DNA of 64,000 nucleotides, from positions 3,496 through 67,495 of the IMG/VR virus record IMGVR_UViG_2902699553_000002; one strand, given 5' to 3'. The notes below the pieces were generated by a model, which made no database searches, was not told the DNA's origin, and was given only the letters and a program-made list of their open reading frames with translations. Each line of letters opens with the position of its first letter. The stretch's first letter is position 1. Source of the stretch: a virus. Taxonomy: Duplodnaviria; Caudoviricetes. This document shows, in pieces, positions 3,236 through 47,083 of this stretch. A program made the translations under genes and the position numbers.

Positions 3236-4696
3236 TCAGGCCCCGGCAAGCCGCAAAATCTCGCGCACGAATTTGGCATCCGATTCCTTACGAGTCGGCT
3301 CGATCAATTGCCGCTCAGACCAATCATCGGTAATGGTCGCAGCCTCTTCCCGGATTAGCGCCAGTTCGTCATCGCTGAGATCCGCCCGCTCCAGCACTTC
3401 CGCCCTTGATGGTTGCGCTGCTGCGGGATGGGTGTAGAGCGGTATATCCCCTGATTCCTGTTGCTTAAAGATCACGCCTGTTTCTCCACGCGCGACATTC
3501 GCCAGATCAAACTGAGTCGTCCAACCCACAGGCACATTCTCCTCGGCTGACGCTATTGGAGCGGGAGGTTTGATTCCGGCGCTGGTGGCGATTTGCTCTA
3601 TCTCGGCGAACTGGTCTTCGTCCAGAATACCTGCTAGGCGCGCCATAATCCGCTGTATGGCTTGCGGCGCTCCAATCGCAGCATCTGTTTGCGCAGCATC
3701 CAAAAGCTCTACAGCTTTGACGAAAGCCATATTCATTTTGAAGTCGTGGCCATGGTCGTCAACAGGACTTGATTTCCTGATCTGATTGACCAGATCGATC
3801 AAGACGTCCTCTGTGCGACAGGCTCGCTCCTCCAAAGCGATAGCGCGCGCAATAAAATCTGTTGGCTCTGCCGCTACTGGTACAGCCTTCTGTGCGAGAG
3901 CGGCTTGCCAGATCGTGAATCGGTCTTTGCACGCATCTACATCGTCACCGTACCAACCGAACTTGTTTTTGTGCCATGCGACAAACCGCGTCCGCTCATC
4001 GCCATCTTGCGGAACGGTGGTGGCTTGAGTGCCTGCGTACAACGGCGTATCCCGAAACAGCGTTTCCTTTCGCTGAATGCCGGGGGTGCGGTCAGGCCCA
4101 GCAGTTTCATCGTCTGGAAGCATGTTACGCAGTTCATGACCATTCACATAGGCCACCGCTGCGGCCTTGTTGGATGCGAGAGCGGCTTGCCATACATGGA
4201 AGCCGAATTCCTCTGCCCACTGATCAAAGTGTTGAAAATAGATTGGACCTTTGAAGGCACTTTTCCACTTTCTGTAAGCAGTCCATTGCACTTGTAGCTC
4301 GTCACCATCTTTCGGAATGGGGGCGGCTTGGGTGCCTGCGCGCCAGTTGGCACATCCCTCGCGAACGCGCGGAAGATCGCCGCCGCATACGCATCGGTCG
4401 CCTTCCGAGCAGTGGCCCGCGCCCCCATCACCAGAATGGTCAGATTGGGCGACTCGAGGCGCTGGCACGCCAGAACTCTCGTCTATGTGAACCAGAATGC
4501 GCTCTGCGGTATCTCGGCTGATTCCATAGCCGTTGCACTCACACTCAACTGCGTGAATAACTGCATCCACTCGGTGCTTAGCCCCGGCATGAGACGTGCG
4601 GCGCAATTCGAACAAATCGCCAGCCATCGCTGGATAGCCGTTTTTCTTAAGCAATCCGATTGCAACGGAAAGCGCGATCTCTTGATCTTCAGTCAT
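3236..4696 (-). CDS. Large mosaic hypothetical early protein
   Basis: 486 aa with repeated blocks AGTQA..P.DGDE..WQAALA and ..PLY. Confidence 0.65.
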   Translation of the reverse strand: MTEDQEIALSVAIGLLKKNGYPAMAGDLFELRRTSHAGAKHRVDAVIHAVECECNGYGISRDTAERILVHIDESSGVPAPRVAQSDHSGDGGAGHCSEGDRCVCGGDLPRVREGCANWRAGTQAAPIPKDGDELQVQWTAYRKWKSAFKGPIYFQHFDQWAEEFGFHVWQAALASNKAAAVAYVNGHELRNMLPDDETAGPDRTPGIQRKETLFRDTPLYAGTQATTVPQDGDERTRFVAWHKNKFGWYGDDVDACKDRFTIWQAALAQKAVPVAAEPTDFIARAIALEERACRTEDVLIDLVNQIRKSSPVDDHGHDFKMNMAFVKAVELLDAAQTDAAIGAPQAIQRIMARLAGILDEDQFAEIEQIATSAGIKPPAPIASAEENVPVGWTTQFDLANVARGETGVIFKQQESGDIPLYTHPAAAQPSRAEVLERADLSDDELALIREEAATITDDWSERQLIEPTRKESDAKFVREILRLAGA

Positions 4697-4725
4697 GGTT
4701 ACTCCAATGAGGCGGGGCTAGGCGG

Positions 4726-4890
4726 TCAGACGCGCGCAGCAGTGCGGATGTTTTCGTACACGTCCGCCGCACGCTCACGCTCTTTGCCGACCGGGCAGGC
4801 GCAGAAGTACGCATATGCGGCTTTCTCGGCACCGCGAAGCTTGTCGATTGCGGCGTTGCGCAACTCAATCAGCTTTTGATCCTCGTCCAT
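4726..4890 (-). CDS. Small hypothetical protein (54 aa, not in ORF track)
   Basis: MDEDQKLIELRNAAIDKLRG...; purine-rich SD upstream. Confidence 0.5.
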   Translation of the reverse strand: MDEDQKLIELRNAAIDKLRGAEKAAYAYFCACPVGKERERAADVYENIRTAARV

Positions 4891-5006
4891 CTCTCATCTC
4901 CAATAATCCAGCATCGCCGATACCACGAGCAGCATGGCGATACGGTTGTTTGATGCTCTCAAAAGCGGGGCCGCAGCCCCTTGCCGCGCCGAGGCGCTGT
5001 TGGTCG

Positions 5007-5711
5007 TTACTCCGGTTCACTAACCGGCTGCGTGAGTTCGTACGGAACCGGTCTCGGAAACCATGTCGGCAACTGTTCGAACGAATCGCGCATCTTCATG
5101 ATTCCGCCGAACACTTCCAGATCGCCCAGGCCACCAACCACGAACATGAGCGGACTGTCGGCGTCTTTCGTAAAGAACCGGATGCTGCCGAAGTGCTGGC
5201 CGATGGTCAGGGCGTCTTTCAGATAAGCCGGATTGATCGCGCCGGAGATGCCCTCGTTATAGCCGCGCGCCGCTGCGACATTCTCGATACGAGGAAAATT
5301 GCCCTCGACCAGCGCATTGCCTGGCTGGATGAACTGGGCCTGCCCATTTTCATCGTTGACCATCGCGGAACCGTTCGACATCACATCAAGCGTGCTCTTC
5401 GCGTTGCACGTCTTGAGCCCGTCCTTCTTGATGGACACGATCACCTCTTTCTCTGCGTAACCGTGTTGATCGCGGATCACGACATACCGATGGCCGTCCG
5501 TAGCGACGATCATTACGGTGTTGTCTTCGAGTGGGCGGACATTGACGCCATTGAGGTAATAGCGGATATCGTTCTGCGCCATGAACGGAAAGGCCACCTT
5601 GACCGCCATTGCATTGATGCGCGCGATCATGTGTGGCGCTTCCTTCGATTCAGGCTCGGCAGGCGCCACGCCGTCGATTGAAAGCTGCTCTTGTTCTGTC
5701 GTTGCGTTCAT
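5007..5711 (-). CDS. DNA polymerase III beta-clamp-like protein (short form)
   Basis: DIRYYLNGV...VATDGHR...GNFP and INPAYLKDAL match DnaN middle/C-terminal domains. Confidence 0.75.
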   Translation of the reverse strand: MNATTEQEQLSIDGVAPAEPESKEAPHMIARINAMAVKVAFPFMAQNDIRYYLNGVNVRPLEDNTVMIVATDGHRYVVIRDQHGYAEKEVIVSIKKDGLKTCNAKSTLDVMSNGSAMVNDENGQAQFIQPGNALVEGNFPRIENVAAARGYNEGISGAINPAYLKDALTIGQHFGSIRFFTKDADSPLMFVVGGLGDLEVFGGIMKMRDSFEQLPTWFPRPVPYELTQPVSEPE

Positions 5712-5869
5712 AGTCATCCTCAATTAGGTGCCGCCACCCTTTAAACTCTGGACCCGCTTTCGCCTAGCAGAGGGATGGCGGCGGTAAAACTTCACGCCGC
5801 CTGTTGCCGAAGCACGGTTTCGCCCGACGCGGTTTCGATGTGGCGGATCAGGGCGGCGCAGATTTGGGG

Positions 5870-6634
5870 TTATGCAGCTTCAGCGAACGTAAGCCGTTTG
5901 TACGCAGCGCGAGCCATGCGCACATCATTGGCGCAGTACTCGGCCACTTCGGCGATACGGCCGGCAGCGACCATATCCCATACCTTGGAGCCGTCCACAC
6001 CGTCAGTCTTGCCGGGAATGCCCAGCGCGCCGCAGAGCCGGTCAAGCCCCACTGATCCCTTGAACCCGGCCCATCGCGTCATGGTGTCGAAAACGTAATC
6101 GTCCCAGGGGCGTGCGTGAAACGGGATGATTGACGGCGGTTTGATGCCCAACACGACCGCACGCTGGAAGATGAAGCGCAGATCAAATTCGGTCACATAA
6201 TGGCCGATAAACACCGGGCGACGGTCGGAACTTGGCGTGTACACATCCTTGATCGCGTCGAATGCGGATCGCAGCACCTTGGCTTCGTCATGCGCCCAGT
6301 CTTCGGAATAGAATGTGACCGGCTCGGCGTCGTCCAGTGCAATGCCGATCACGGCGATTTGACCGGATCCGCCATCGAATGAGGTCTTGCGCCACTGTTC
6401 TTGCGCGGCTTCCTCGAGCTTTTCATCGCGGAAGCGTTCTACCCACAATTCGAGCGCCTTATCCTTCGATGTGTACTTGATCTCGCTCGCGTCGGTCATG
6501 CCCAGATCGGCGCAGGCCTTTTCCTTCGTCAGCGTGGAGGGGGCCTTGAAGTTCTCGCGCAGATCGGCGCGAATCGCTTCGAGCACGGCGGGGTTTGTCG
6601 AGGGTATGGTCTCGATGTCCAGAGTCACATTCAT
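5870..6634 (-). CDS. 3'-5' exonuclease (DEDD/PolB-like RNase H fold)
   Basis: LDIETIP, GHY..FDLRFI, FDTM, EYCANDV exonuclease motifs. Confidence 0.8.
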   Translation of the reverse strand: MNVTLDIETIPSTNPAVLEAIRADLRENFKAPSTLTKEKACADLGMTDASEIKYTSKDKALELWVERFRDEKLEEAAQEQWRKTSFDGGSGQIAVIGIALDDAEPVTFYSEDWAHDEAKVLRSAFDAIKDVYTPSSDRRPVFIGHYVTEFDLRFIFQRAVVLGIKPPSIIPFHARPWDDYVFDTMTRWAGFKGSVGLDRLCGALGIPGKTDGVDGSKVWDMVAAGRIAEVAEYCANDVRMARAAYKRLTFAEAA

Positions 6635-15798: not shown

Positions 15799-16104
15799 TC
15801 AAACCACTTCGAACTGAGCTACCTTTGAGCGGACCCACGCGATGCGGGCAATATTCAAATGCAGGACGCCGCCATCTTGCTCGTTGTCGTACATATGGCA
15901 TCCGCCAAATGGGTATGCCTTGTCGAGGCCGTCATCAGCAAATGCTTTCTTGAGTTCTTTAAGGGCTTCCACGCCGGGATAGCCATCCCAGAAAACGAAG
16001 TTCGTGCAGAGACCGACGTAGCGATCAAACGGCTCTTCGTTAAGAGCGCCACAGTCGACCCACTCGAGATATTCTGAGAGAAACGCCTTGAGGTGATCTG
16101 ACAT
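15799..16104 (-). CDS. First gene of the pL operon, hypothetical
   Basis: AGGAGA SD; immediately downstream of pL. Confidence 0.6.
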   Translation of the reverse strand: MSDHLKAFLSEYLEWVDCGALNEEPFDRYVGLCTNFVFWDGYPGVEALKELKKAFADDGLDKAYPFGGCHMYDNEQDGGVLHLNIARIAWVRSKVAQFEVV

Positions 16105-16154: not shown

Positions 16155-16207
16155 ATCTTATACAAGCGTTTTTGTAGCGTCAAGCACTGGTTACAATTAT
16201 TTTTGTA
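16155..16207 (-). promoter_or_regulatory. pL promoter with two repressor operators (oL)
   Basis: TTGACG(16183-16178)-N17-TAAGAT(16160-16155); palindromes TACAA-N6-TTGTA at 16161-16176 and 16192-16207. Confidence 0.8.
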
Positions 16208-16263: not shown

Positions 16264-16461
16264 ATGACGCGAGAAGAGGTATTGCTACGGATGACCGAGG
16301 TCGAACCCGAGGGAAAGTGGGCGCCGATCGAGAGGTATGCAGATGTGCTGGCCGAGCTGGAGCGGATGCTCAGTGACCGGGAAATGCGGGTATTGGTAGA
16401 GGCCGGCGCGCGGCTGGTGAGGCTGAGTTATCCGGAGGTATTTGGGATGCGGCGGATATGA
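16264..16461 (+). CDS. Small hypothetical protein in the immunity region
   Basis: AGGAGG SD, 65 aa, convergent with the protease gene. Confidence 0.6.
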   Translation: MTREEVLLRMTEVEPEGKWAPIERYADVLAELERMLSDREMRVLVEAGARLVRLSYPEVFGMRRI

Positions 16462-16485
16462 AAAAGCCCCGGCAGGCGGGGCTTA
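16461..16485. terminator. Intrinsic terminator between convergent genes
   Basis: AAAAAGCCCCG-GCAGG-CGGGGCTT. Confidence 0.7.
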
Positions 16486-16504
16486 TGGAAGTTCTTTGAC
16501 CTGC

Positions 16505-16951
16505 TTAATAGGATAGCGAATAGTCGCCAGTCACTCCGTTGTACACGAGCAGGCATTTTTGTAAAATATCGCGCCCTATCAATCCCATGATGCCCTGTGG
16601 CGCGAGACTTGATTCGATCACAGGAATAGCTGGCAGCACAAACGCCGGGGCTTGCAAAACACCACACGGAATGATCATCTGGACGTCATACATATTGCAT
16701 TGGTGAAGGACGCCATTTGTCGATGGTGTTTGCACGCCAGTGGTGCCGGTCGGCTGAAGCCCCAAGGGGGCAACCAAACCTTGGTCAACAACGGTATGGC
16801 TAGCCCCGGTATCAACCAGGAAAAGGCCGCTTACTGGCGCGGGGAGTGGCACCTTGGCTGCCAACATTGCCTGCATGCGAGGTGCGCTCGGCAAAATAAA
16901 CACGGTCAGCACAGGGCCTTGCGTAGTTATTTTTAAATTTATGCCGGGCAT
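16505..16951 (-). CDS. Retropepsin-like (clan AA) aspartyl protease
   Basis: FLVDTGAS catalytic motif and GLIGRDIL closing motif. Confidence 0.85.
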   Translation of the reverse strand: MPGINLKITTQGPVLTVFILPSAPRMQAMLAAKVPLPAPVSGLFLVDTGASHTVVDQGLVAPLGLQPTGTTGVQTPSTNGVLHQCNMYDVQMIIPCGVLQAPAFVLPAIPVIESSLAPQGIMGLIGRDILQKCLLVYNGVTGDYSLSY

Positions 16952-17181
16952 GTAGCAAGATATGTTCGGGTGAAGTTAGCAACGCTTTCCGTCCTGGTGA
17001 TAAGCTTAACCAAGAAGGGGTCGAGTCCAAAGCGCTCATATCCCAATTTCAATGCATCTTCGTATGTCTCGAAGATTTCGATTGGTTGATCACCCTTGAT
17101 CAGGGCATATTTACCTTCATCCTTCCAGAGAGCAGGCAGTTCTGCTTTGAATCTTGCGAGCTCTGTTTCGAGAGCGGCCAT
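16939..17181 (-). CDS. Small partner protein (DUF5678-like)
   Basis: GKYALIKGDQPI..F.TYEDAL..GY..FG..PFLVK; GAGG SD; overlaps the protease start. Confidence 0.65.
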   Translation of the reverse strand: MAALETELARFKAELPALWKDEGKYALIKGDQPIEIFETYEDALKLGYERFGLDPFLVKLITRTESVANFTRTYLATCPA

Positions 17182-17450
17182 GATTTTACCTCAAAATGAA
17201 CAGGTTCTTGACAACACTAGAAGTTTAGCATCCGTATCCGACCAGTCGATCCGCGAACAGAAATATTTTTGCCGCCCTAAAGACCCACGTGTTTGGTGCC
17301 GTAATTCTCAGGGGTGCTCGGTGCGCTAGGTCGCACACGTCGGAACCAACTGCCATTGCAATTGATTGCAAAGTACACAACTGGACAGATCCGCTCAAAC
17401 TGTCCAGATTGCACCCTCACCGCCTCCGGTACTTCCGGTGCTCTCCCGCG

Positions 17451-18269
17451 CTATTCTTGCCTGTTTCGAGATTCAACGGCCGATCCCCGCGGCATGATCG
17501 CAGCGACGCGATGAATGTGTACGATCTCGGTCATCGGTCTGGTGATCGGCGGAACACCGTTATTGATCGATCCCAGGCAGACGTCACCGTCGCGGATCCA
17601 CAGCAACTCCTTCACAACGCAGCTGCCATCCATAAATTTCACGACCACGTCATCGCCTGGCTGGGCCTCTACGTTTGGCTCGACCGCAATATATTCACCG
17701 CTTTTTATACGGGGTCGCATGCTGTCGCCCCGCACCTTCAGCCCATAGGCACCCGCATCACGCGATCTTACTTCGGGCAAATGGCTATGCCCGTGTCCTG
17801 CTGGGTAGTCATCAATGCTGATGTATCCGTCAGGCCCTCCCTGCACTTCCCCAACAATGGCCACGGAGCGTCCCTCTCTCAGTTCTAGTCTGTCGCCGAC
17901 ATTCGATTCTATCGGCTCACTGGAAATGCTAGACCGTCCCGCCAGAGGCAAATTGACAATCATGCCCCTTTCTTGTGCGCTGATTGAGGTATCGGGGATA
18001 TTGGAATTGTGCTGGGCAAATGTCGCCTCTCGTGGAACTGGCGCAACGCCCTTTCCATAGGCCAGCCACCCTGCGTCGCACTCGAGAACTTCGGCGAAAT
18101 GCTGTGTGTATTTGCTGGACTTGGCATTGTTGTTGTGGTTCAGCAAGTACTGAATGTTCTGCGGCTTGCAGCCATCCCCGACCCGTCTAGCCAACTCGCT
18201 CTGGTCAGACTGGGGATTGAGTCCAGCGCATTTCATGGCCCATTCAAGGCGATCGGCGTAAGTAATCAT
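17451..18269 (-). CDS. cI: CI-like repressor (HTH + S24 autopeptidase)
   Basis: N-terminal HTH QSELARRVG; VRGDSM Ser and VVKEL Lys; divergent from cro. Confidence 0.9.
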   Translation of the reverse strand: MITYADRLEWAMKCAGLNPQSDQSELARRVGDGCKPQNIQYLLNHNNNAKSSKYTQHFAEVLECDAGWLAYGKGVAPVPREATFAQHNSNIPDTSISAQERGMIVNLPLAGRSSISSEPIESNVGDRLELREGRSVAIVGEVQGGPDGYISIDDYPAGHGHSHLPEVRSRDAGAYGLKVRGDSMRPRIKSGEYIAVEPNVEAQPGDDVVVKFMDGSCVVKELLWIRDGDVCLGSINNGVPPITRPMTEIVHIHRVAAIMPRGSAVESRNRQE

Positions 18270-18343
18270 ACAAAGGATTTTGTATAAAACCGCAGCAAAA
18301 GTGCTTGTAGGTTTTTGTCCCCTGTGCTACAAATATGCTTGTA
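18269..18343. promoter_or_regulatory. oR operators
   Basis: TACAAAGGATTTTGTA 18269-18284, AGCAAAAGTGCTTGTA 18294-18309, TACAAATATGCTTGTA 18328-18343; same consensus as oL. Confidence 0.8.
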
Positions 18344-18361
18344 GACATTCACAGGCGCACC

Positions 18362-18688
18362 ATGAAGAAATCTCCTCCTGACACCGGCATCGCCAAAGCG
18401 ATCGCAATCGCTGGCAGCCAAGTCAAGCTCGCAGCCCTGATCGGCGCAAACCAGCAAATGGTTTCGTACTGGAACAAGGCTGGCATCGTTAGCGATACCG
18501 GAATGTGCGCCGCCATCGAACGCGAAACAGGGGTTCGGTGCGAGGAGCTTAATCGCAATGAAGACTGGGCAACCTTGCGGCTTGTTCTGTGCGCGCCGGA
18601 TCGTGACAACTTCGCGGCATCGGACGACACGCAACCACCAGTTGGCGGCTCGGTTGATGACTCGCCCTTGGCAAAGATGGTGGCCTAA
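18362..18688 (+). CDS. cro: Cro-like repressor (YdaS-type)
   Basis: AIAIAGSQVKLAALIG.NQQMVSYW..IERETGV.CEEL. Confidence 0.8.
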   Translation: MKKSPPDTGIAKAIAIAGSQVKLAALIGANQQMVSYWNKAGIVSDTGMCAAIERETGVRCEELNRNEDWATLRLVLCAPDRDNFAASDDTQPPVGGSVDDSPLAKMVA

Positions 18689-21896: not shown

Positions 21897-22946
21897 GTGT
21901 CAGATGCATCACCGCAACTCGAGAACGGTTATACGAGGCTCGCTAATGAGCTTCTGGACGCGCTCATTAGCGCGGGTCTAACAGCTAGGCAATGGGCGGT
22001 CGTGATGGCGATCATTCGTAAAACGTACGGCTTCAACAAGGCTTCCGATGAAATCGGTCTGTCGCAGTTGTCTGCCATGACGGGTCTCGACAAGTCGAAC
22101 CTGAGCAGAACCGTGCGTGAACTCGAAGGCACCAAGGTGATTCATCGTGGCGACGGAACCCATGGTCATACGCTTGGCATCAACAAAAATCACAAGCAAT
22201 GGGAGTTGTCGAATCAACAACCCCAGTTGTCAAAACAACAACCGTTGTCAGAACAACAACCGTTGTCAGAACAACAACCGTTGTCAGAACAACAACCGGG
22301 GGGTTGTCAGAACAACAACGAAGGGGTTGTTGAAACGACAACTAAGGGGTTGTCAGAACAACAACCACAATATACGTCTTTAAAAACACCTCAAAAGACA
22401 ACTCCAAAAGACATGAGCGCTGGCGCGCTCGCCGCTCGCTTCGATACGTTCTATTCGGCCTATCCGAAAAAGCGCAACCGAGGCAGAGCAAAGAAGGCTT
22501 TCCTGAAACTAAAGCCTGACGATTCGTTCCTGCAAATCATGCTTGAAGCCGTAGAGGTCGCGAAGCGTTGTCGCGATGACTGGCGCAAGGATGGCGGCCA
22601 ATTCATTCCTTACGCCGAAGCTTGGCTCAACGCCGAGGGATGGGCCGACGGGGTAGATCAAACCGAATATTCGGATGCCGAACTTGCTGTGATCGATTCT
22701 TACAACGCTGTCATGACAGGCGATTGGCCGCGGGCTGTAATCGACCCGTTCAGTCCGGCGCGCGCCAGCGATATCCGGATGTTTCTTGAGTTCGCTCCTG
22801 AAAAGCCGGATATGCCGACGAAGTATTTCGAGCATTGCGAGGCGAATTTGAAGCCTGTCGAGAACCTAGGGTTCGAATGGCTAATCGACCGCGAAACGTA
22901 CATCCGCGTGAAAGAGGACGCAGTAAAGCACAAGGAATCGAAATGA
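21897..22946 (+). CDS. Replication initiator, lambda O-like
   Basis: LENGYTRLANELL..IIRKTYGFNK; internal iterons; FYSAYPKK..WLN. Confidence 0.88.
   Translation: MSDASPQLENGYTRLANELLDALISAGLTARQWAVVMAIIRKTYGFNKASDEIGLSQLSAMTGLDKSNLSRTVRELEGTKVIHRGDGTHGHTLGINKNHKQWELSNQQPQLSKQQPLSEQQPLSEQQPLSEQQPGGCQNNNEGVVETTTKGLSEQQPQYTSLKTPQKTTPKDMSAGALAARFDTFYSAYPKKRNRGRAKKAFLKLKPDDSFLQIMLEAVEVAKRCRDDWRKDGGQFIPYAEAWLNAEGWADGVDQTEYSDAELAVIDSYNAVMTGDWPRAVIDPFSPARASDIRMFLEFAPEKPDMPTKYFEHCEANLKPVENLGFEWLIDRETYIRVKEDAVKHKESK
22205..22365. repeat. Origin iterons: eight copies of about GTTGTCAGAACAACAAC, partly as 18-bp tandem repeats
   Basis: Semi-palindromic GTTGT-N7-ACAAC inside the O gene, followed by an A-rich tract. 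Confidence 0.85.
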
Positions 22947-32900: not shown

Positions 32901-33413
32901 ATGGCAACACTCACGGATGACGTGAAAACGTTCATCGTGCAGGCGTTGGCCTGCTTTGACACACCCAACCAGGTGTCCATCGCCGTGAAAGAGGAATTCG
33001 GGCTGGATGTGCCCCGCTCTCACGTGCAGGCGTATGACCCGTCCAAAGCGTTAGCTAAGAGTCTTGGCAAGAAATGGCGCGAGTTATTCGCAGCCACACG
33101 CAAGGCGTTTATCGAAGATCAGGCAACTATCCCGATTGCTCATCAGAACTTCCGGTTGCGCGCCCTGAACAGGATGTACGACAAGGCAGCATCGGGCGGC
33201 AATATCGCACTGGCTGCCCAGCTAATTGAGCAGGCCGCCAAGGAGGCTGGGGATGCCTTCACCAACAAACACAAACTGGAACACACCGGAAAGGACGGCG
33301 GCCCGATCAAGAGTGCAGTCACGCCGGTCGATCTAGACGATGCGACCGATGAAGAACTCGATGTCCTTGAGCGCGTCCTTGCTAGGCGTCAGTCTGGCGC
33401 AGATCAAGGCTGA
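32901..33413 (+). CDS. terS: Terminase small subunit (DUF2280)
   Basis: [21 protein letters not shown]; EQAAKE.G; upstream of terL. Confidence 0.85.
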
Positions 33414-34899
33414 GAAGCTTAGGCGTCTGCGCGTCAGGCTCGAAGCCGATCACCTGGAGTTCACGAAACACTTCTTCAGGATCCGCCAGGGCATCGACTT
33501 CCGCGTCAACTGGCACCACGTCTACATCGCGGATACGCTTGAGAAGGTGATCCGCGGCGAGATCAAGAACGTCGTGTTCAACGTTTCGCCGGGTTCGTCA
33601 AAGACCGAAGAGGTGGTGATTAACTTCATCGCCCGCGGCCTGGCATTGAATGCCCGTGCCCGCTTTCTGCATATCTCGTATTCGGATGACCTCGCGGTTC
33701 TGAACTCCGAAACGGCGCGTGAAGTTGTCCGCTCCGAGGAATATCAGGAACTGTGGCCGCGCAAGATCGCGACCGATGCAGACTCAAAGAAGCGCTGGAA
33801 CGTCGAGGACAACGGGAAAAAGGCTGGCGGCGTCTATGCCACCTCCCTGGGTGGGCAGATTACGGGGTTCCGTGCCGGCCACATGGCTGAAGGCTGGCAA
33901 GGCGCCATCCTGATCGATGACCCGCTCAAGGTCGAGGACGCTTACAGCAAGACTAATCGCGACAAGGCAAACCGCAAGCTCATCTCAACGGTCAAGAGCC
34001 GGCGGGCCAATCCCGACACGCCGATCGTTGTGATCATGCAGCGCCTGGCTGAGGAAGACCCGACGGGCTTCATCAAGTCGGGTGGCGTGCCGGGGGAATG
34101 GACGTTCATCGAGATTCCGGCGCTTATCACGGATGAGTATGTCGCAAAGCTCCCAGAGCATATCCGACCCCTGGTTGATAGCTCGGAGCGCGATGAGGAT
34201 GGGCGGTTTAGTTATTGGCCGTATAAGGAGCCGCTGCACGAGTTGCTGGCCATGGAGAAGGCCGACAAGTATGTGTTTAGCGGGCAGTACATGCAGAAGC
34301 CCTCACCTCTCGGTGGCGGCATCCTGCGCGGCGAAGCGTTCAAGCGGTATGTCCAGCTTCCCAAGATCCAGCACATCAAGATTTACGCCGATACGGCCCA
34401 GAAAACGGCCGAACGGAACGACTACAGCGTATTCCAGTGCTGGGGCATCGGTTACGACAACCATGCCTATCTGATCGACCAGATCCGCGGGAAATGGACG
34501 GCCCCGCAGTTGCGGCAAAAGGCGATCGACTTCTGGCACAAGCACAACGTAAGCGGGAAAGATGCTCCGTCGCTGCGCAAGATGATGGTCGAGGATAAAT
34601 CGAGCGGCACTGGGCTTATTCAGGACATCCAGGCCGCCGGCGGAATTCCGGTTGAGGGCATCGAGCGCAACAAGGACAAGCTGACGCGCGTCATGGACGT
34701 GGTGAGTTTCATCGACTCGGGACAGGTATGGGTTCCGGCTGAGGCGCCCTGGGTATCGGACTTTATCAACGAGTGCGAATCTTTCACCCCCGACGATACG
34801 CACGCGCACGACGACCAGATCGATCCAATGGTGGACGCAATCAATGACCTGCTGGGCGGCCGACGTGGCATAGCCATGTGGGAGAGGCTCGGCAAATGA
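33361..34899 (+). CDS. terL: Terminase large subunit
   Basis: [39 protein letters not shown]. Confidence 0.92.
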
Positions 34900-45268: not shown

Positions 45269-47083
45269 ATGACGACGGCTCAACTTCCTATTTCGCGCCT
45301 GATCCAGGGGACCGTGAACCTGTCGCCAAACGCGGCCCAGGCACAGAACCTGAATACCGAACTGATCCTCGGCTCCTCGCCGGTGATCGATGTGAATTCG
45401 CGGATGCGCATTTACACCGGGATCACTGGTGTCGCCGCTGATTTCGGCACGACCGCCCCTGAATATCTGGCCGCGGTCGACTGGTTTGGGCAACTGCCCT
45501 CGCCTGCCAATGTCCTGATCGGCCGGTGGGCGCAGACCGCGACTGCTGCGGAGCTGTTCGGCGCATCCTTGTCGGTCGCGCAACAATTGATATCCGCATG
45601 GACGGCCATTACGGCTCCGGCCTTCTCGATCACGATCAACGGCACGCCGTACACCATCTCGCCGGCAAGTTTCGCAACGCAGACGAATCTGAACGGGATT
45701 GCGGCGCTGATCCAGACCGCTCTGGCTGCCGCCGTGGCCGGCTCGACCTGCGTGTGGAATTCGAGTTTTGCCCAGTTCCAGATCACTGACGGCACGACCG
45801 GTGCAACGTCGACGCTCAGTTTTGCCAGCGCGCCGACGGCATTCGGCTCGGTAACGTATTCGGTCAACCCGTCTGCGGCTGCCACGGTCACGATCGGCGG
45901 CACTGCGGTCACGTACGTCTCGGCGCTGACCACTGGTAACCAGATCCTGCTCGGAGCCACGCTGGCTGCAACGCTCGCCAACGCGGTGACGTTCCTGAAC
46001 CAGTCGACCGACACGAATCTGTCGAAGGCTGTCTATTCGGTTAATCAGGCCGGCACTGCGCTCCAGATCGTCTACAAGACCGCCGGAACGGGCGGCAATG
46101 CATTCACGCTGGCGGGTTCGGTTGGAACCGTCTCTGGCGCCACACTGAGCGGCGGAAGCGGTATGGATATCTCCTCGATGCTAGGCATGACCGCTGCCTC
46201 CTCGGGTGCATTCGTCGCGCAAGGTGTTGCAGCAGAATCGGCTGTCGCAGCGGCCACCCTGTTTGACAACCAGTTCGGCCAACAATGGTACGGCCTGACG
46301 GTCCCGCAAGCCGCTGATTCGGATCACCTTGCACTCGCAGCATTCATTGAGGCAACGACCAACAAGCACTTCTACGGCGTGACCACGCAAGAGGCTGGTG
46401 TCCTGACGACGCAGAGCACGACCGATATCGCTTCGCAGTTGCAAGCGCTTGGCTACAACAAGACCTGTACGCAATTCTCGAGCAATAGCGCCTATGCAGT
46501 GAACTCGCTGCTCGGCCGCCAGTTGACGGTGGACTACACGGGCAACAATACGGTCATCACCCTGTTCTACAAGCAGGAGCCGGGTGTGCAGGCGGAAACG
46601 CTCAATGCCACGCAGATCGGCGCGCTCGAAGCCAAGAACTGCAATGTCTATGTCGCCTACAACAACGGCACGACGATCATCGAGCCGGCCAAGGTCGCGT
46701 CGGGCCAGTTCATTGACACTATCGTTGGTTGCGATGCGTTCGTGATCGACGTTCAGACGGCCGTGTTCAATTTGCTCTATACGAGCACAACGAAGATTCC
46801 GCAAACCGATCCGGGCATGCACATCATCGCGACGGCCATCGAGACAGTCTGCCAGCAGTACGTCAACAACGGCCTGTTGGCTCCGGGTACCTGGAATAGT
46901 GGCGGTTTCGGCACGCTGAACCAGGGTGATTTCCTTCCCAAGGGCTTCTACGTCTATCAGCCGCCGGTTGCATCGCAGAGTCAGGCGGACCGCGCGGCGC
47001 GCAAGTCGGTTCCCTTCCAGATCGCAGCAAAGTTGGCCGGCGCAGTTCACACAGCCGACTTCGCAATAAATGTAAATCCCTGA
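45269..47083 (+). CDS. Tail sheath protein (DUF3383)
   Basis: VAADFG..APEY.AA..WF.Q, KQEPGV, KIPQTD, KGFYVY, LAGAVH. Confidence 0.9.
   Translation: MTTAQLPISRLIQGTVNLSPNAAQAQNLNTELILGSSPVIDVNSRMRIYTGITGVAADFGTTAPEYLAAVDWFGQLPSPANVLIGRWAQTATAAELFGASLSVAQQLISAWTAITAPAFSITINGTPYTISPASFATQTNLNGIAALIQTALAAAVAGSTCVWNSSFAQFQITDGTTGATSTLSFASAPTAFGSVTYSVNPSAAATVTIGGTAVTYVSALTTGNQILLGATLAATLANAVTFLNQSTDTNLSKAVYSVNQAGTALQIVYKTAGTGGNAFTLAGSVGTVSGATLSGGSGMDISSMLGMTAASSGAFVAQGVAAESAVAAATLFDNQFGQQWYGLTVPQAADSDHLALAAFIEATTNKHFYGVTTQEAGVLTTQSTTDIASQLQALGYNKTCTQFSSNSAYAVNSLLGRQLTVDYTGNNTVITLFYKQEPGVQAETLNATQIGALEAKNCNVYVAYNNGTTIIEPAKVASGQFIDTIVGCDAFVIDVQTAVFNLLYTSTTKIPQTDPGMHIIATAIETVCQQYVNNGLLAPGTWNSGGFGTLNQGDFLPKGFYVYQPPVASQSQADRAARKSVPFQIAAKLAGAVHTADFAINVNP

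Follow-up and report, generated by a model that had tools for sequence, protein, structure and literature searches.

The stretch analyzed here (the window: 64,000 nucleotides, positions 3,496 to 67,495 of the IMG/VR virus record IMGVR_UViG_2902699553_000002; Duplodnaviria, Caudoviricetes) carries a prophage with a cI-type repressor gene. Downstream of cI and in the same orientation lie two genes, the first encoding a small acidic protein (hereafter the partner) and the second a retropepsin-like aspartyl protease. The original prediction, made from the sequence alone, had proposed this pair as a candidate defence or exclusion system in the slot that holds rexAB in phage lambda. Its coordinates for the two overlapping genes (80 aa, and 148 aa with DTGAS and IGRD motifs) were borne out, with the start of the protease gene lying over the end of the partner gene by 13 nt, and so was their position behind an S24 repressor gene (17451–18269, minus strand). 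The features of this strand, from cI onwards, are as follows:

17451–18269, minus strand: gene of a cI-type repressor (272 aa) whose C-terminal part is an S24 autopeptidase domain (Pfam PF00717, 2e-14; phrog_4 transcriptional repressor, 2.8e-28)
17182–17450, minus strand: spacer of 269 nt between cI and the partner gene, with an 8-bp hairpin (17381–17407) and a unique palindrome (17356–17371)
16939–17181, minus strand: partner gene, 80 aa, acidic product, putative remote member of the DUF5678 family, GAGG Shine-Dalgarno sequence upstream
16505–16951, minus strand: gene of the retropepsin-like aspartyl protease, 148 aa (Pfam, alignment and AlphaFold2 (AF2) model)
16464–16484, minus strand: hairpin with an 8-bp GC-rich stem and a U5 run behind it (−13.7 kcal/mol), predicted intrinsic terminator on the strand of cI and the pair

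The product of the second gene is, to judge from its sequence and predicted structure, a soluble clan AA aspartyl protease of retropepsin fold, as the original prediction had supposed, with a strongly constrained catalytic site. It scored above the curated Pfam cut-offs for Asp_protease_2 (26.6 bits, cut-off 24.3) and RVP (24.9, cut-off 20.7) and below that for gag-asp_proteas (26.6, cut-off 28.2). The DTGAS motif occupies residues 47–51 and IGRD residues 125–128; among 101 aligned homologues D47-T48-G49-A50 and G126 were invariant, and R127 and D128 were each retained in 100. The AF2 model (predicted local distance difference test score, pLDDT, 94.8) showed a single-lobe retropepsin fold, with the Rickettsia protease APRc as the best Foldseek match (5c9b, 1.4e-4, TMt 0.68) and the XMRV, HTLV-1, FIV, RSV and HIV proteases among the other top matches. 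A search of PDB sequences with the family profile retrieved the HTLV-1 protease (E 1.4e-4, marginal) and Ddi1. PHROGs and NCBIfam gave no useful family for either protein of the pair.

The protease thus shares the single-lobe clan AA fold, the DTG(A) loop and the C-terminal G-R-D with the retropepsins of HIV, HTLV and XMRV and with APRc, Ddi1 and RimB, but differs from them by an N-terminal extension and by lacking a polyprotein and a membrane anchor. In the AF2 model the extension, about 35 aa long and additional to solved retropepsins, has a strand-strand-helix arrangement. The original prediction had noted the lack of a signal peptide; in the model, residues 3–31 are built into the globular domain as strands and a helix. 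Every sequence keeps Met1 and 89 of 99 have Pro2, and the 148-aa start is therefore favoured over the 135-aa start of the database copy. A search for longer, fused relatives of the protease (at least 260 aa) found none, which is weak evidence; one relative of 210 aa, P0066, is without a partner domain.

The partner is more difficult to place. The original prediction had called it DUF5678-like, and a remote relation is suggested, since 15 of 101 partner homologues matched DUF5678 (PF18929; best 7.5e-6), whereas the window protein itself had no Pfam match even at E <= 10 and none in PHROGs, PADLOC or NCBIfam. Moreover, a homologue with 64% identity carries the NCBI name DUF5678. Predicted DUF5678 structures matched the partner model weakly, with probabilities of 0.96–0.97 but E-values of 0.2–0.3, and those from giant viruses aligned with it at template modelling (TM) scores of 0.60–0.64. 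The AF2 model of the partner (pLDDT 83) consists of a helix-strand-strand-helix-strand core (residues 5–60) and a tail (61–80) to which the model gives no structure but which is conserved: E65 was found in 91 and R72 in 97 of 101 sequences, and V67, F69/70 and S/T71 are conserved as well. This conserved C-terminal tail is an addition of the window subfamily in comparison with the distant members of DUF5678.

A conserved C-terminal cysteine of the partner (Cys78, 72 of 97 sequences) was considered as a functional residue and rejected, since the overlap of the two genes (16939–16951) accounts for it: it is conserved because its TGC codon coincides, in the other frame, with the ATG-CC start of the protease gene, the next partner codon being CNN (P, H, Q or R). 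Cys78 showed no co-variation with Cys54 or Cys133 of the protease. The non-significant Foldseek matches of the partner included a run of ATP-grasp proteins (RimK, with a probability of at most 0.13, GshB, PurK, Ddl and tubulin tyrosine ligase), and the C-terminal domain of the fused toxin-antitoxin protein CapRel appeared among its matches in the VIA fold search (Z 3.6). Both resemblances are below any trustworthy level and were not built on. A PDB sequence search with the partner profile returned nothing.

The family of the partner is large. When 1.84 billion representative proteins were searched with its profile, 4,503 clusters (counted at 50% identity) were obtained at E <= 1e-3 and 1,548 at E <= 1e-10, and Uroviricota was the commonest known taxon listed for the partner-like Atlas clusters. 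Among the 150 best representatives, 13 were tandem double-partner proteins of 174–229 aa and none had a protease domain; the tandem proteins include P0090, P0096, P0124, P0125, P0130, P0135, P0154, P0160, P0179, P0191, P0217 and P0231. Such pseudo-dimers would fit a homodimeric protease target.

Association of the two genes was followed in 116 protease-led loci, comprising the best 80 of 232 protease relatives in species genomes and 36 IMG/VR viral contigs. The genome loci are the closest relatives, looser ones being under-sampled, and gene calls in the other loci were made by open reading frame (ORF) heuristics. Co-occurrence elsewhere, on which the original prediction had staked itself beforehand, was nearly complete: a match to the partner hidden Markov model stood directly upstream on the same strand, or was fused to the protease, in 113 of the 116 loci. 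The exceptions were L025, with an intact upstream region and no partner, L093, with just 104 nt of upstream sequence, and L116, which has the most distant protease. Where both genes were full length, the gap between them ranged from −32 to +31 nt in 100 of 103 loci, being −13 nt in 40 and −25 nt in 16, and in two loci (L061 and L115) the partner and the protease were fused in frame. Conversely, scans led by the partner found the protease downstream in all six viral loci. Outside this set, 6 of 400 sampled other genomes of the same phylum carried a distant DUF5678-like gene matching the core only, with matches ending at profile positions 61–68; three of these genes were followed by a short retropepsin and three, all of one genus, stood alone.

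The two proteins have also diverged together. Across 101 pairs the pairwise identities of the partner and of the protease correlated with r = 0.764, against a maximum of 0.156 in 500 permutations, and 14 of the 25 strongest inter-protein pairs by mutual information with average product correction involve the partner tail (61–80), a weak signal drawn from about 94 effective sequences. These genome comparisons show the pair to be a fixed, co-inherited, self-contained and horizontally mobile two-gene cassette with coupled translation. In-frame fusion, translational coupling, co-variation and a tail that is conserved without being structured suggest that the two proteins bind each other, and the partner would control the protease.

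The cassette was found in Pseudomonadota, Acidobacteriota, Planctomycetota, Nitrospirota, Gemmatimonadota, Verrucomicrobiota, Myxococcota, Actinomycetes, candidate-phyla bacteria and others, with almost no genes in common between the 116 loci and the window prophage beyond the pair itself. The 99 upstream neighbours fell into 74 Pfam families, none represented more than three times (integrase 3, IS1 transposase 3, PemK 2, HTH_3 2), and the 100 on the downstream side into 114 (integrase 4); housekeeping genes are frequent among them all. The closest relatives of the window pair are viral contigs (51–57% identity). In L084 the pair adjoins a CP4-type integrase, and in 17 of the 36 viral loci (L081–L116; counted from coordinates) it lies no more than 2.5 kb from a contig end, a prophage-end cargo position unlike the immunity-region position in the window. 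The host genome of 8.0 Mb contains a single copy of the pair, and in 150 other genomes of the genus the search turned up nothing comparable, the one match being weak (E 3.2e-6) and lying within a frame of 417 aa. A tblastn search of 50,697 deposited phage genomes with both proteins found nothing.

A homologue of the window cI gene was near the pair in 3 of the 116 loci and upstream on the same strand only in L096, another temperate phage, where (3833–6441) a cro-like gene, a cI gene with 33% identity and a PemK/MazF-like gene precede the pair, with cI, the PemK/MazF-like gene and the pair on the same strand. The slot downstream of cI gathers toxin-like cargo there too. No obvious antitoxin gene stands before the PemK/MazF-like gene of L096.

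In the window, the pair is enclosed by what appear to be the two operator regions of the prophage, as follows:

18335–18688, plus strand: cro-like gene with a helix-turn-helix (HTH) domain, facing cI (YdaS/HTH, 3.5e-11)
18269–18343: OR-like operators between the cI and cro-like genes, with TACAA-N6-TTGTA at 18269–18284 and 18328–18343 and a weaker copy near 18294–18309
16161–16176 and 16192–16207: OL-like operators, TACAA-N6-TTGTA, clustered with a promoter within 16155–16207
16183 to 16155, minus strand: PL-like leftward promoter, TTGACG-17-TAAGAT, overlapped by the OL-like operators
15799–16104: early-left gene behind the PL-like promoter (phrog_2510)

The motif TACAA-N6-TTGTA occurs in four perfect copies in the window, two on the OL side and two on the OR side, 2.1 kb apart. 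With up to one mismatch allowed there are six copies, compared to 0.33 expected, and none of 100 shuffled sequences reached six. The clusters are the analogues of OR and OL, and the immunity region is arranged like that of lambda. The four perfect copies bear out the original placement of the pair between cI and oL and, by bounding the slot with operators, its comparison with the rexAB slot.

In lambda, rexA and rexB are exclusion genes of the immunity region, located between cI and OL, and Rex consists of a sensor and a membrane channel. The lambda genes likewise form a block of two that reads in the direction of cI and has a terminator behind it. The window pair differs from Rex in being a soluble protease with a small acidic protein and in the 269-nt hairpin-bearing spacer after cI, and neither of its proteins matched a Rex family in Pfam or PHROGs, where the protease matched aspartyl-protease families only and the partner nothing. 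The GC content is 47.3% in the partner gene, 53.0% in the protease gene and 51.7% in the spacer, compared to 55.4% in cI and 57.8% in the whole window. The two genes had been described as visibly AT-richer, and this was partly confirmed. With its lower GC than cI and the window, the block between cI and OL looks like an acquired moron. Here the cassette is a moron of a myovirus-type prophage, lying in the lambda rexAB position of its immunity region and ending in its own terminator.

The hairpin just after cI (17381–17407, 8-bp stem) has only a weak T-run behind it, and therefore read-through from the cI promoter into the pair is plausible. The spacer palindrome at 17356–17371, TTGCAATTGATTGCAA, is perfect over 16 bp and has one copy in the window; tried as an operator for the pair, it was not above chance once mismatches were allowed. 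The palindrome could be an operator of the pair and the cI hairpin a leaky terminator, neither being statistically compelling. Only two sequencing runs contained a small share (0.07) of the stretch. A soil metatranscriptome library contained a 157-nt contig identical to 16793–16949, the 5' end of the protease gene, which could be DNA carry-over. The second run (X1, flagged as probably DNA) contained a contig with 95% identity to the C-terminal part of cI (17478–18004) and complete divergence left of 17478, toward the pair. The related element therefore has different DNA downstream of cI, as a moron slot predicts.

What the pair does may be approached from systems of similar build. It shares with type II toxin-antitoxin systems (MazEF/PemIK) a small upstream gene overlapping a larger downstream one, an acidic small protein with a conserved unstructured tail and a patchy horizontal spread, with integrases, transposases and other toxins among its neighbours. 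It departs from them in that the partner has no recognised DNA-binding fold, the effector would be an aspartyl protease, and fusions and partner-less copies exist. Among predicted defence systems, the PDC-M08B models weakly matched the window protease at 7.9e-4 and 48 of 101 protease homologues at E <= 0.01 (best 7.8e-6), E-values which suggest the same superfamily and not the same family, while none of 101 partner homologues matched the PDC-M08A models. PDC-M08 is a phage defence candidate in PADLOC that came from guilt-by-embedding, and the PDC systems are untested predictions (10.1101/2024.01.29.577857); the P. aeruginosa hotspot paper (PMC10250203) is not their source and has no mention of PDC.

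The reading we favour, with a probability of roughly 0.4, is that of a regulated protease effector whose partner serves as inhibitor or sensor, the two working in the manner of toxin-antitoxin or abortive-infection modules. It is preferred because it accounts best for a distribution that is patchy and selfish and for the location in an immunity region. The partner would bind the protease, most likely via its conserved C-terminal tail, and the bound partner would block either the formation of the active homodimer or the substrate cleft. Once the partner was lost, titrated or displaced, as might happen through host shut-off or an infecting phage's protein, the protease would dimerise, and the freed dimer might then cleave cellular or phage proteins so that growth stops. 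In a lysogen, superinfecting phages would be excluded or the prophage stabilised. A bolder version, in which the pair is the founding member of a large family of protease-based toxin-antitoxin or abortive-infection systems whose DUF5678-type partner restrains the retropepsin by its tail and which, carried in the rexAB slot, excludes rival phages, is less likely than not.

Several observations weigh against a toxin-antitoxin or abortive-infection role. Comparison of the partner fold with the PDB by Foldseek gave nothing clear (best E 2.3), hence no recognisable DNA-binding fold like those of classical type II antitoxins, nor did a wide fold search with VIA (best Z 3.7). No sigma-70 consensus promoter was found on the coding strand of the 269-nt spacer, nor any promoter dedicated to the two genes. 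Covalent fusion is more usual between an adaptor and its enzyme than for a labile antitoxin. Furthermore, apparently intact proteases occur without an intact partner: in L025 the partner is absent, in L007 it is split by a frameshift, and in L036 (4381–6444) an IS256-like transposase gene (413 aa, opposite strand) stands between the two genes, the partner tail being truncated and the protease frame open. Such copies would be unexpected if the protease were strongly toxic, and assembly errors or promoter loss could explain them. The enrichment in defence islands raised in the original prediction was not seen: when 150 immediate neighbours, drawn at random from 192 eligible, were compared with PADLOC at E <= 1e-5, about 4 matched, mostly generic ones (two of sigma-54 activator type, one PDC-S01 and one oxidoreductase).

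Much of this would be better accommodated if the partner were an obligate activating or substrate-recruiting subunit of the protease, the processing being specific and non-lethal, possibly of its own tail, and of benefit to the cell or the element. The in-frame fusions L061 and L115 and the tandem partners (13 of 150) fit a stable complex, the loci with a damaged or absent partner (L007, L025 and L036) speak against a lethal free protease, and the neighbours are often housekeeping and rarely defence genes. On these four points the adaptor explanation fits better than the toxin-antitoxin one. The introduction of the RimB paper notes that the few bacterial A2 peptidases characterised so far depend on other protein factors, and RimB works with RimK (PMC11957791). 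Like the window protease, RimB of Pseudomonas is cytoplasmic and encoded with a protein partner (PMC11957791). In comparison, the partner in the window is an 80-aa DUF5678-like protein and not an ATP-grasp enzyme. Against an adaptor, no conserved candidate substrate gene stands beside the pair, as the 74 upstream and 114 downstream families indicate, and the patchy multi-phylum spread and the carriage by prophages, in an immunity region as well as beside integrases, are typical of selfish or conflict cassettes and not of a housekeeping function. We regard an activating partner as the main and a serious rival, somewhat less probable than the favoured reading.

A role of the pair in counter-defence or host takeover, the protease degrading a host immunity or surface protein and the partner guiding or timing it, is improbable. 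The 36 relatives on IMG/VR viral contigs, the viral origin of the closest relatives and the prominence of Uroviricota among the partner-like clusters would agree with it. However, most of the 80 genome loci lie amid ordinary chromosomal genes and have no phage gene directly beside them, and a slot after cI and before a terminator, not within the early lytic operons, suggests that the pair is expressed in the lysogen and not in lytic growth. Least credible is a modulation of lysis and lysogeny in which the protease cleaves CI or another regulator of the prophage (the original prediction had mentioned modulation of CI): the pair is adjacent to and co-oriented with cI, with a similar layout in one other phage (L096), but it lies mostly in non-phage contexts with unrelated neighbours and a cI homologue in just 3 of 116 loci, CI has its own S24 self-cleavage domain, and a module intact in Acidobacteriota, Planctomycetota, candidate-phyla bacteria and others cannot depend on this repressor.

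Cytoplasmic retropepsin-like proteases of bacteria have barely been studied. The full-text literature searched, with subscription journals and supplementary files outside its scope, contained work on RimB, on secreted Pseudomonas enzymes and on Rickettsia APRc, and no paper on the pair, in agreement with the earlier remark that it is without a characterised function. The comparisons made here show that one such protease occurs in a fixed, very widespread and mobile two-gene unit with a DUF5678-type protein, borne by phages in moron positions, namely in the immunity region in the window and beside an integrase in the closest relatives. If the toxin-antitoxin or exclusion reading is correct, aspartyl proteolysis would be a new effector chemistry in bacterial conflict and DUF5678 would gain a function; if instead the partner is an adaptor, the pair would be a new module of regulated proteolysis. 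At about 0.7 kb the module is small and easy to test.

The assignment of the prophage to the myovirus type relies on PHROG matches to structural and replication genes elsewhere in the window:

21897–22946: O-like replication initiator
33340–34899: large terminase
45269–47083: tail sheath
in the window: DnaB-like helicase
in the window: portal, head protease, major head protein and tape measure

One further gene stands opposite to the pair and is listed for context only:

16264–16461, plus strand: convergent ORF, 65 aa, AGGAGG Shine-Dalgarno sequence

The hairpin at 16464–16484 had been proposed as a terminator shared by the pair and this ORF. On the minus strand it appears genuine, whereas on the plus strand it has no T-run and would therefore be a poor terminator for the ORF. 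The 65-aa product had no family match, none of the 116 related loci has a homologue of it, and it was rejected as a member of the module. The ORF begins 56 nt rightward of the OL-like operators and reads toward the protease gene. If driven by a promoter under OL control, it would be activated by induction, with a transcript that could extend into the protease gene in antisense.

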